Shown here piece by piece: positions 13,301-15,792 of a stretch of DNA of 64,000 bases. The position numbers were made by a program, and so were the translations under genes. The notes below the pieces were generated by a model, which worked only from the letters and a program-made list of their open reading frames with translations, was not told the origin of the DNA and ran no database searches. Source of the stretch: Candidatus Obscuribacterales bacterium (GTDB lineage Bacteria > Cyanobacteriota > Vampirovibrionia > Obscuribacterales > Obscuribacteraceae); NCBI GenBank assembly GCA_965228855.1, contig CBDDIJ010000003.1, forward strand, positions 288,001 to 352,000. Reading direction: 5' to 3'. Each line of letters begins with the position of its first letter. Position 1 is the stretch's first letter.

Positions 13301-14047
13301 CTAGACTTTCATGACCTGAAAGTCTACGGCGCCCAACCGTTTTGCGACATTCTTTTCGTCCGTGATCAAATAGTCGAGATCCGAGATTGCGCAGAGCGTG
13401 TAATGTAGCGAGAATCCAAGTTTCTCTTTGCCTGATACGATTGCCAGCTCAGATGCTCTTTTGATAAACGCGGTCTTGACCATTGAATCCTGATAGTGGC
13501 TTACAGTAGCGCCATTCTCCCTGTTGAGTCCTTGCACGCTGATTATCGCCAGGTCGGCGGTAAATCGTTGTATGGCGGTGAGAACTTCGGGACCTTCGTT
13601 GATTAGAAGCTCGGGAACAAGAGTGCCGCCCAGGAGAATGACTTTGGACGTCCGGCAATTCGCAAAGGCGATTGCGTTTGCGGCGCTGTGTGTCACGAAT
13701 GTGGCGTTTAAACCTGCTGGTAAAAACTCGGCGATTAATTGAGTAGTAGTTCCGCCGTCGATGAAAACGAGCATGCCCGGCTGAATCAGCTTTGCTGCTT
13801 CGGACGCCATTTTTCGCTTCCCTTCGAGATTTAATTCGATGCGCGCCGAATATTCGAATGGTACAGGGCTGATCGCCATAGCGCCGCCGTGAACCTTTTT
13901 CAGTTTCCCGCTCTCCGACAGGTCTTTGAGATCTCGGCGGATGGTGTCTTCTGAGACGTTCAATTCGGAGGCGAGTTCGAACGATGAAGCTTTGCCCTTC
14001 ACATTTAAGTGGTTGAGAATCCACTGTCTGCGTTCTTCAGTGAACAT
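13301..14047 (-). CDS. DeoR/GlpR family transcriptional regulator
   Basis: ERRQWIL...LNVSEDTIRRDL...KVHGGA HTH; FIDGGTT sensor domain. Confidence 0.95.
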   Translation of the reverse strand: MFTEERRQWILNHLNVKGKASSFELASELNVSEDTIRRDLKDLSESGKLKKVHGGAMAISPVPFEYSARIELNLEGKRKMASEAAKLIQPGMLVFIDGGTTTQLIAEFLPAGLNATFVTHSAANAIAFANCRTSKVILLGGTLVPELLINEGPEVLTAIQRFTADLAIISVQGLNRENGATVSHYQDSMVKTAFIKRASELAIVSGKEKLGFSLHYTLCAISDLDYLITDEKNVAKRLGAVDFQVMKV

Positions 14048-14061
14048 GCGCCTTCACATAC

Positions 14062-14114
14062 CCTTGCGTTTTTGTGCCGATTTGTGCATGATTATACACG
14101 AAATGTGCACGAAC
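14062..14114. promoter_or_regulatory. Divergent promoter region with repeated TGTGC/GCAC boxes (candidate DeoR operator)
   Basis: TTGCG, TTTGTGCC, TTTGTGCA, ACACGAA, TGTGCACGAA at about 11-bp spacing between the regulator and the nucleotidase. Confidence 0.45.
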
Positions 14115-14125
14115 GGGAGGCAAAT

Positions 14126-14683
14126 ATGAAAAGAATAGCGATCGATATGGACGAGGTCATTACGGACGCTCTTTCCAAGCACGTTCGTCTTTACAACGAG
14201 CACTTCAATAAGCAGGTAATCATTGATGAACACCTGGTTGGTCTATCGCTTCGCGAATTTGCCGAAGAGCATGAACGCCTTAAAGTGCGCGAATTTGTCG
14301 ATGATGAAATGTTCTTCGCTGAAATGGACGTTTTGCCGGGGGCGCTTGAAACTTTGGAAGCTCTCTCTCATGAAAACGAGCTGTTCATCACAACTGCGGC
14401 CATGGAAGTTCCTTACTCATTTCGCGCAAAGTATGAGTGGCTTTTGAAGCACACACCATTCATCGACCCTATGAATTTTGTCTTTTGCGGCGACAAATCG
14501 ATCGTGCAGGCCGATTTCTTGATCGACGATAATGTCCGTCACTTCAAGCGTTTCAAAGGCACCGGCTTGCTTTTCGATGCACCGCACAATAGATATGTCG
14601 ATTACAATCCTCGCATGCTTGGCTGGTCGGATGTGGCAAAATTTTTTGGCGTGAGCGTCAAAGAAAAAGCGGTTTGCTCTTAA
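14126..14683 (+). CDS. 5'(3')-deoxyribonucleotidase (NT5C-type HAD)
   Basis: MKRIAIDMDEVITD motif I, KYEWL, FCGDKSI..ADFLIDDN; GGGAGG RBS before ATG 14126 (track start 14009 is too long). Confidence 0.92.
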   Translation: MKRIAIDMDEVITDALSKHVRLYNEHFNKQVIIDEHLVGLSLREFAEEHERLKVREFVDDEMFFAEMDVLPGALETLEALSHENELFITTAAMEVPYSFRAKYEWLLKHTPFIDPMNFVFCGDKSIVQADFLIDDNVRHFKRFKGTGLLFDAPHNRYVDYNPRMLGWSDVAKFFGVSVKEKAVCS

Positions 14684-14806
14684 GTTTTGCCTTGAACTTT
14701 GTTAGAGTGATTATGTCGCTGGGAGCTTTTTTGAAGTCTGGGAACTTCCTCAAAACGAGCAGCGTCGTAACGACTCAATTGTAGAAACTGCTTTCTCAAG
14801 TTGGTC

Positions 14807-15199
14807 ATGAAGCGGATTATCAAACAAGCAATCAATATGCTACTCAGCGCTGCATTTGCGCTGAGTTCGATTGCTGTTGGAAGCGCGTCCGCCTGCTCCG
14901 TGTCTGGTGCCGCCGTTGTTGCTGAGAAGATGACGATGGCGTGTTGCATGCAGCATAAAACGACAGGCATGAATAATGTTTGTCATTGCAGCATGAAGCA
15001 GGCGCCCGCCAGTGCTCCGCAGACCATAAGCACCACGCAAAGCATTGATGCGCATCTTCCCGCAGTCGAAGCGCCGGCACCAAAATCGTTTGTCGCGTTT
15101 CGTCAGGAGCCGCTCAACTCACAGTGGCTCGCACTGGATTGCCGGTTGCGCGCGCCACCACCACGGCTTTATATATTGAACTGTGCCTTCCTGAGTTAA
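14807..15199 (+). CDS. Secreted Cys/Met-rich leader protein with C-terminal RAPPP motif (DUF2946/CutF/CruR-like candidate arrest peptide)
   Basis: Signal peptide (..SASA-C); MTMACCMQH..VCHCSM metal-ligand cluster; LRAPPPRLYILNCAFLS end. Confidence 0.7.
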   Translation: MKRIIKQAINMLLSAAFALSSIAVGSASACSVSGAAVVAEKMTMACCMQHKTTGMNNVCHCSMKQAPASAPQTISTTQSIDAHLPAVEAPAPKSFVAFRQEPLNSQWLALDCRLRAPPPRLYILNCAFLS

Positions 15200-15268
15200 A
15201 TCATGGGTGTAAATCGCTGAGCCAGTGAGCTTTAGCGAGATCGTCGTACCCATATTTAATTTCAGGAG
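15188..15268 (+). promoter_or_regulatory. Long stem-loop sequestering the Shine-Dalgarno of the copper-storage gene
   Basis: TTCCTGAGTTAAAT (15188-15201) pairs with ATTTAATTTCAGGAG (15254-15268); ATGGGT/ACCCAT and TCGCTGAG/TTTAGCGA form the inner helices. Confidence 0.7.
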
Positions 15269-15277
15269 TATTTCTAT

Positions 15278-15736
15278 ATGAAACGTATTATTTTTTCGTT
15301 GCTCGTTATTTTGTCCTTTCTCGCCTTCAATCCGATGTTGAATGCCGCGACCGCAGCTGACAAAGCTAAGACCGGCGCTGCATGCAGTCACAGTGACACA
15401 TGCAAGAGCTGTCAAAAAAGTTGCGAAGATGCATTGAAGTATTGCCTTTCAAAAGGCGGTAAGCATGCTGAGAAAGCGCATATCGACGCCTTGAAAGATT
15501 GCATCGCGATGTGCAAAGTCTCTGCTGACCTCGGTTCTCGTAACTCGAGTTTGCTTCCGAAGATCAGAGAAGTCTGTGCTGAGGCGTGCAAAAAGTGCGC
15601 TGCAAGCTGTGAAGCTCTCAACGATCCCAAGTTGAAGGATTGCGTCACTGCCTGCAACGAATGCGAGAAATCCTGCACCAGCAGCACAGGATCGTCGTGC
15701 TGCACTGATGGCAAGGACAGTAAAAAAGCGAAGTAG
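15278..15736 (+). CDS. Exported four-helix-bundle copper-binding/storage protein (Csp/DUF326-like)
   Basis: Signal peptide; CKSCQKSCEDALKYCL..GGKHAE..HI..LKDCIAMC; CAEACKKCAASC; CVTACNECEKSC (CxxxC/CxxC periodicity). Confidence 0.88.
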   Translation: MKRIIFSLLVILSFLAFNPMLNAATAADKAKTGAACSHSDTCKSCQKSCEDALKYCLSKGGKHAEKAHIDALKDCIAMCKVSADLGSRNSSLLPKIREVCAEACKKCAASCEALNDPKLKDCVTACNECEKSCTSSTGSSCCTDGKDSKKAK

Positions 15737-15760: not shown

Positions 15761-15792
15761 AATCGGGAGTGCGATAAACACTCCCGGTTTTC
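15761..15792 (+). terminator. Rho-independent terminator after the copper-storage gene
   Basis: AATCGGGAGTG-cgataaa-CACTCCCGGTT followed by TTT. Confidence 0.75.

Follow-up and report, generated by a model that had tools for sequence, protein, structure and literature searches.

A candidate leader-peptide switch over the ribosome-binding site of a Csp-like gene in Obscuribacterales

Described leader peptides and the csp locus

Three groups of described leader peptides resemble the locus studied here, each in part. In CutF of Rhodobacter capsulatus (cutFOG; DUF2946-like; PMC9973294, PMC8456105), a short exported leader with cysteines and a C-terminal proline run precedes a copper-handling gene whose Shine–Dalgarno (SD) sequence is hidden by a short intergenic stem, and the read-out is translational and expected to be copper-ON. 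Because the PPP of CutF is located two residues from the stop codon, the arrested ribosome opens the stem, and copper prolongs the arrest (PMC9973294). In CruR (Bp2923; PMC9426467, arrest in PMC12992588), a RAPP motif three residues from the end follows a CxxC motif at a fixed distance of 45 residues, and a spacing of +5 already impaired function (PMC9426467). The model for CruR is that copper relieves the RAPP arrest (PMC9426467), and the output is Rho-dependent termination, that is, copper-OFF. SecM and other RAPP export-monitoring peptides (PMC10987492, PMC10951233) combine a signal sequence, a RAPP-like motif and a downstream SD-sequestering stem, and among them arrest at a stop codon has a precedent (PMC10987492). 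RAPP arrests with its third residue in the P site, CruR included (PMC12992588), and the minimal motif RxPP is enough to cause stalling and is elsewhere under negative selection (PMC10951233). The copper storage proteins (Csps) Csp1 and Csp3 (TIGR04401; 5fjd, 6zif; PMC7558416, bioRxiv 2025.05.01.651437) are Cys-lined four-helix bundles; Csps bind Cu(I) and rise with copper (PMC7558416).

The window analysed here is a 64,000-nt stretch of a Candidatus Obscuribacterales genome (assembly GCA_965228855.1), in which a leader ORF lies 78 nt upstream of a Csp-like gene on the same strand (Table 1). The ATG was taken as the likelier start of the leader since an in-frame TTG at 14801 is altered in a close relative. 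Codon changes against the closest relative, 14 of them synonymous and 6 non-synonymous, indicate that the leader evolves as coding sequence. Its N-terminus has a basic start, a hydrophobic stretch (best 12-residue hydropathy 1.99) and A-S-A before Cys30. Among 36 aligned leaders C46 and C59 are invariant, and C47 and C61 are kept in at least 90%. The RAPP codons occupy 15149–15160, and the proline predicted to sit in the P site (15155) is encoded by the 14th codon from the stop.

Table 1. Features of the leader–csp locus and of two further leaders in the same genome
Feature	Position	Strand	Basis or remark
Leader ORF, 130 aa	14807..15199	+	ATG 14807 the likelier start
Sec signal-peptide-like N-terminus of leader	14807..14893	+	By eye and hydropathy
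Two Cys clusters, C46-C47 and C59-H-C61	14942..14989	+	Candidate metal or redox site
W-L-A-x-D-x-x-L-R-A-P-P-P, candidate elongation-arrest motif	15125..15163	+	Conservation and SecM register
C-terminal tail LYILNCAFLS-stop, second candidate pause site	15167..15199	+	Divergent form of the family tail
Anti-SD arm: Phe-Leu-Ser-stop codons and 2 nt	15188..15201	+	Folding
Two inner helices of the intergenic stem	15203..15253	+	Folding
3′ arm with Shine–Dalgarno sequence	15254..15268	+	Folding
Csp-like protein, 152 aa, 17 Cys	15278..15736	+	Sequence relationship to solved Csps
Second leader family member	G000:C5:104572-105033; L224:7573-8034	-	Before CzcB- and CusA/CzcA-family genes
Third leader, ends PPLYILKRALLI-stop, two Cys only	G000:C3:853634-854044; L223:7635-8045	-	Before a CzcB/CzcA-type pair

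No Pfam or NCBIfam family matched the leader or 35 relatives; DUF2946/PF11162, to which CruR belongs, matched neither the leader nor any of the 36 aligned leaders, even with E allowed up to 1, and nothing in the genome passed its cut-off. An alignment-based homologue search returned 22 proteins, the named ones all from Melainabacteria/Obscuribacterales (one named homologue, from Candidatus Obscuribacterales, is 96% identical), and a single-sequence search reached two genera only, its weaker matches being noise. In the ESM Atlas the leader falls among unnamed clusters at 0.96, and the nearest named families, DUF8199/DUF6769, serve as a lead only.

By sequence relationship and its many cysteines, the downstream gene is assigned to the Csp four-helix-bundle superfamily. 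Against PDB sequences its product matched 3lmf (E 8e-14), RkCsp3 (6zif, E 7e-12), Csp1 (5fjd, E 0.007) and, more weakly than 3lmf and RkCsp3, Csp3; against TIGR04401, the Csp1 family, it scored 31.2 bits, below the cut-off of 100. Whereas the described exported Csps are Tat substrates, the present protein has a Sec-type N-terminus without a twin-arginine motif. Elsewhere in the genome (G000:C3:3550215-3550514, minus strand) lies a further Csp paralogue, poor in Cys and signal-like at its start, with no leader seen upstream. The upstream neighbours, a divergent DeoR-family regulator and an NT5C-type nucleotidase (13301–14683), are ordinary. Downstream, a 9-bp hairpin (15764–15786) between csp and a convergent Sel1-repeat gene is terminator-like on the minus strand and possibly serves both genes.

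The leader passes the length, proline and neighbour rules used to find CutF-like leaders (PMC9973294), with 130 aa (limit 150), PPP at −14 to −12 (PP required within the last 15 residues) and a same-strand neighbour 78 nt away (limit 1000 nt). It nevertheless differs from CutF in several respects: its RAPPP lies 12–16 codons from the stop, its cysteines form CC and CxC rather than CxxxC, its prolines are followed by a conserved tail of 10 residues, a match to DUF2946 is absent, and the target is a Csp-like protein in Obscuribacterales. With CruR it shares RAPP and an upstream Cys motif; however, 12 residues follow RAPP, the distance from C61 to R115 is 53 residues, the motifs are CC and CxC instead of CxxC, and the output would be SD occlusion, such that release would mean ON. 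SecM-type peptides monitor protein export and their arrest opens the SD, and the polarity proposed below would therefore be the reverse of that of SecM and CutF.

The stem over the csp ribosome-binding site and the ribosome positions that open it

The original prediction was that the Phe-Leu-Ser-stop codons of the leader are complementary to the csp ribosome-binding site (RBS) and close a stem of ~80 nt with two inner helices, and folding bore this out. The anti-SD arm, TTCCTGAGTTAAAT, comprises TTC (Phe), CTG (Leu), AGT (Ser) and the TAA stop codon of the leader, thus the last codons of the tail double as an RNA arm; the opposite arm, ATTTAATTTCAGGAG, ends in AGGAG at 15264–15268, 9 nt upstream of the csp ATG. 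The 81 nt fold as a single stem of −31.0 kcal/mol (z −5.32; none of 200 dinucleotide shuffles as good), with z-scores of −2.81 and −3.82 in wider folding windows. The outer helix pairs 15189–15201 with 15254–15267 around one bulged U, and the inner helices pair 15203–15209 with 15247–15253 and 15214–15222 with 15229–15238. Instead of being left unpaired, the SD is predicted to be paired, with probabilities of 0.88–1.0 for A-G-G-A (15264–15267). A lower extension of the stem across the AUG appeared in one folding window and was absent in others, and is not relied on. Rfam covariance models gave four weak matches, all far below the gathering score and none on the stem, and scans of the intergenic plus strand found no terminator or promoter.

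Opening the csp RBS costs 14.0 kcal/mol, compared with a median of 8.5 kcal/mol for 260 sampled AGGAG genes of the same genome; because 10 of the 260 are at least as occluded, the strength of occlusion alone lies in the top 4% and is not unique. When the last six codons were recoded synonymously the opening cost dropped to 8.9 ± 2.3 kcal/mol, and the native codons occluded better than 148 of 150 recodings, the other two reaching the native value. At seven other loci of the RAPP-bearing clade described below, 0–17% of synonymous recodings reached native occlusion.

We modelled a ribosome as blocking the RNA through 15 nt past its P-site codon, at equilibrium and without kinetics, and the P-site assignment for RAPP was taken from CruR toeprints (PMC12992588) and ApdA/ApdP structures (PMC10951233). 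The RAPP codons lie 28–39 nt upstream of the stem, within the 25–40 nt first proposed. With the ribosome at the RAPP proline the RBS stayed shut, at 16–17 kcal/mol, in agreement with the claim that arrest at RAPP would leave the RBS hidden, and this geometry holds by a margin of ~17 nt. With the ribosome at codon −8 the opening cost was 12.9 kcal/mol and at codons −6 to −1 it was 3.7–4.5 kcal/mol; in a second folding window it was at least 14 kcal/mol until the ribosome edge passed 15187 and 3.6–5.5 kcal/mol from 15193. The companion claim, that a ribosome reaching the stop melts the stem, thus also stands in the model, once the ribosome is some six codons or fewer from the stop. In this the locus differs from CutF: a modelled RAPP stall leaves the stem shut, and only a ribosome on the last six codons opens it. 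Across the RAPP clade, the median opening cost was 13.3 kcal/mol for free RNA, 13.65 with a ribosome at RAPP and 5.1–5.45 near the stop, and one member (L006) barely shifted, from 6.5 to 6.1 kcal/mol.

The leader family and related leaders

A search with the Csp found matches in 89 of the 107 genomes of the order. The best 90 of 142 matches were taken, leaving out the 52 weaker ones, and 3 of the 90 had no start candidate, giving 87 csp loci. Within this set of the best 90 matches, an upstream leader was present at 63 of the 87 loci, and leader and Csp-like gene were linked in 63 of 78 genomes and 19 of 27 genera. The filter for leaders required hydrophobic residues at −8, −3 and −2 together with His or an aromatic residue at −9, and those positions are hence conserved by construction. 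Among features outside the filter, CC is present in all 63 leaders, and R at −5 and I at −1 occur in 45 and 44 of 53 distinct tails. The resulting tail, [LRI]-Y-[IL]-L-x-R-x-L-L-I-stop (in short Y-xxx-R-x-LLI-stop), lies ~70 residues from the Cys cluster. Many synonymous codons are used at −10, −9, −8 and −5 (for R at −5 both AGN and CGN), so these positions are kept as protein, and at −3 to −1 codons are biased in a way that fits RNA pairing. Mean column identity of the leader alignment is 21%, and the distance from the second Cys cluster to the C-terminus is 63–82 residues, with a median of 70; it is 67–70 in leaders with RAPP and has a median of 70 in leaders without.

RAPP is present in 8 of the 63 leaders, which form a single clade; the other 55 keep the Cys clusters, the tail and the anti-SD. 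Only 19 of the 63 have PP within the last 20 residues. On a quick Csp tree (125 columns, weak support) the loci with RAPP form one group (SH-aLRT 89) adjoining three with AAPPP leaders (82), which suggests one origin of RAPP. These three sister leaders (L009–L011, genus g36) combine AAPPP, a variant of RAPP that does not arrest in published mutants, with a divergent tail, and are a natural control. In the RAPP clade itself R-5 is lost, with C at −5 in 8/8, and the last residue is S, E, N or K rather than I.

The most probable partner of the SD was found in the last codons in 41 of the 63 loci, 9–13 nt past the stop in 16 and elsewhere in 6. It fell within −9 to +13 of the stop in 57 of the 63 loci, compared with 16 of 170 control gene pairs of the genome, a range that was picked after seeing the data and counts related, not independent, loci. 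Where the anti-SD lies past the stop (16 loci), a ribosome mostly has to be on one of the final two codons to reach the arm. The native arm near the stop paired better with its own RBS than did arms from other genera in 15 of 19 genera (42 of 63 loci). Of the 64 cells of the 8-bp anti-SD helix in the RAPP clade, 62 are paired; three pairs vary on one side, and a single double change, A-U to G-C, which also alters the last residue, occurs in three sequences; the sequence of the inner helices is unalignable across subgroups. The covariation check in orthologues did not reach significance (77 of 500 shuffles; 8 sequences). Median RBS opening was 9.3 kcal/mol for the leader family, 13.3 for the RAPP clade and 6.1 for 22 csp loci without a leader.

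A leader family paralogous to the csp leader precedes czc genes and repeats the layout with RAPP far upstream. Its members (L224 and its relatives L227–L241) have a signal-like start, CxC, CxDCGHxxxCC, an end in LL[ITV] and an anti-SD in the last codons. Among 15 relatives taken from 20 matches, 13 carry RAPP, 16–18 codons before the stop and 46–51 residues after CC, which matches the CruR spacing; 7 of the 15 loci lacked a downstream SD and ORF to model. In all 7 modelled loci that carry RAPP, a stall there left the SD about as shut as in free RNA; placed at the stop, the ribosome opened it in 7 of the 8 loci modelled. The third leader has the canonical tail without RAPP, and modelled opening occurred only at the last two codons. 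As the tail of the RAPP clade lacks R-5 and I-1 and this canonical-tail leader lacks RAPP, the two elements look complementary, on few independent events. A further leader-like ORF of the genome (L225; stop at 1747991, plus strand, G000:C2) has CxDCGHxxxCC, no RAPP and the tail Y-LAKQSLLI-stop, and a similar one is present in L234.

Scanning 185,579 species genomes for the tail pattern turned up 98 stretches, the majority being chance hits in ORFs that are short or off-frame. The tail ends short exported-looking ORFs in Gemmatimonadetes, BRC1, two Bacteroidota, Thermoanaerobaculia and a deltaproteobacterium, and three further such ORFs were found besides the Obscuribacterales leaders; outside that order some are Cys-rich. 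Three leaders with this tail (L140, L167, L201) precede small exported CC-rich metallothionein-like ORFs of 69–95 aa, for which there were no family matches over the cut-off. Two Cys-poor Bacteroidota leaders with the tail (L148, L173) precede DabA (inorganic carbon transport) and a YfiR-like gene, thus the tail need not be metal-specific. The Bacteroidota HYC_CC_PP family presumably ends in a similar tail; a link between the two was absent from the literature searched, and there was no NCBIfam match. The tail was likewise not found in the accessible text of PMC10987492 and PMC10951233.

Arrest sites, metal and the direction of the switch

The three leading readings agree that translation of the leader governs access to the SD and differ in the arrest site and the signal. 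The best of them, tentatively favoured at slightly less than an even chance, is a gate at RAPP with metal-triggered release and opening at the tail, where the ribosome would dwell. The last codons of the leader would pair with and hide the csp RBS, and a ribosome stalled at RAPP, 14 codons upstream, would leave the stem shut; copper bound by the exported Cys clusters would free it, after which it would translate on into the tail as far as the stop codon, disrupt the pairing of the anti-SD arm and make csp accessible to translation. A dwell on the conserved tail or at the stop would probably prolong this open state. Since a stalled ribosome leaves the SD shut, arrest at RAPP would mean OFF and release ON. 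Genes for storage and efflux are expected to respond to metal by turning on, and for this the metal must release the ribosome, as in the CruR model (PMC9426467). We infer that the leader is exported and stalls its ribosome at RAPP, that it binds a metal, copper, and that binding frees the ribosome and turns csp on. In all 8 clade leaders, W, L, A, D, L and RAPP are conserved, with synonymous codon changes, and W-L precede the Arg by 8 and 7 residues, as in SecM WIxxxxGIRAGP (PMC10987492); RAPP therefore looks functional in its clade. Rho scored over the TIGR00767 cut-off in none of 41 genomes (best 36 of 509 bits), while 8 of 14 control genomes passed. As Rho was not found in these genomes and the intergenic gap contains no terminator-like site, the read-out is probably translational, and the Rho-dependent read-out of CruR is unlikely here.

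For RAPP as regulator the original prediction is supported in part. The geometry, the conservation within the clade, the recurrence of the layout before czcBA genes and the published model of copper release in CruR speak for it; against it, 55 of the 63 orthologous leaders lack RAPP, hence it is not the core of the family, and leaders with and without it share one Cys-to-stop distance, hence the spacing ruler points to the stop. Moreover, the 53 residues from C61 to RAPP exceed the +5 that impairs CruR, L006 barely responds in the model, and in a related system a ribosome merely running through a stem gave basal expression only (PMC10987492). Pulling by Sec could also free a RAPP stall without any metal, and copper prolongs arrest in CutF, a sign that at RAPP would mean OFF (PMC9973294).

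The same two facts, leaders without RAPP that keep the tail and one Cys-to-stop distance, make a CutF-like dwell a serious rival, if a rather unlikely one. The ribosome would pause at the last codon of the conserved tail or at the stop and cover the anti-SD arm, and copper on the exported Cys clusters would prolong the dwell so that the SD stays free; RAPP would be an added checkpoint, released by Sec pulling regardless of metal. The tail is present in 63/63 leaders by filter, and, outside the filter, R-5 and I-1 are common in it and the Arg is kept as protein. The Cys-to-stop spacing is held despite ~21% mean identity, and the SD partner lies near the stop at nearly all loci and far fewer controls. 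The dwell explains the anti-SD arms past the stop as well, and one sign of copper action would fit every orthologue. Precedents are CutF (PMC9973294; bioRxiv 2025.02.05.636593) and exported peptides whose arrest depends on the stop codon (PMC10987492). However, the RAPP clade has lost R-5 and I-1, and the codons remaining there are explicable by RNA pairing; stalling at the tail is itself an inference, and a C-terminus of hydrophobic residues might instead be a tag for proteases (PMC9426467); and the SecM-like context of RAPP, though conserved, is given a minor role. A reading that joins both sites is on the unlikely side: two interchangeable arrest sites would be wired oppositely to one hairpin, a stop-codon tail that opens the SD while the ribosome is stalled and, in one clade, a RAPP gate 14 codons upstream that shuts it until metal arrives.

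It is distinctly unlikely that the same RNA switch answers another signal, such as Sec export, periplasmic disulfide formation, or Zn, Cd or Ag in place of copper. CC and CxC differ from the CxxC and CxxxC of CruR and CutF, related tails precede czcBA-type operons and, in other phyla with Cys-poor leaders, DabA and YfiR-like genes, and the CutF authors invoke disulfides as a pulling force. Against it, the leader is linked with a Csp-like gene in 63 of the 78 genomes, all 63 leaders have the Cys clusters, and Csps bind Cu(I) (PMC7558416).

Plain translational coupling or RNA stability, very unlikely in our judgement, would have the stem tie csp initiation to completion of the leader or protect a processed csp mRNA, the leader motifs serving a small exported chaperone and its turnover. 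Consistent with it, occlusion across the family is modest (9.3 kcal/mol, near the genome background of 8.5) and native arms pair no better than those of other genera in 4 of 19 genera; two contigs from RNA runs, short pieces, cover csp only and are too thin to weigh. RAPP and its context, the fixed Cys-to-stop spacing and the layout repeated in the czc leaders are left unexplained by it. A copper-OFF switch, with copper prolonging the RAPP stall and shutting csp, or a stem that ends transcription, has precedents in CutF, where copper prolongs arrest, and in CruR, which controls transcription, but is highly improbable, given that Rho and a terminator-like site were not found and that OFF logic is hard to reconcile with storage and efflux genes.

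Leader control of csp, a release-ON SD switch and the tail were absent from the literature searched, and the supplements of PMC9973294 (logos, neighbour table) may hold them. The proposed gate at RAPP would rearrange the known copper switches of CruR and CutF, with the copper sign of CruR and a translational read-out. How copper bound outside the membrane alters a stalled ribosome is a question to which CutF and CruR give opposite signs, and the orthologues with and without RAPP, with their 70-residue ruler and compact hairpin, form a natural series in which arrest site, metal sign and read-out could be told apart. The present leaders would extend metal sensing by leader peptides to Csp-like storage and Czc-type efflux, in a lineage where Rho was not found, and their widespread C-terminal tail would be missed by surveys based on RAPP or PP. 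If the reading with two arrest sites is true, the family would provide a new termination-arrest motif, a release-ON translational switch and a flip of polarity between orthologues.
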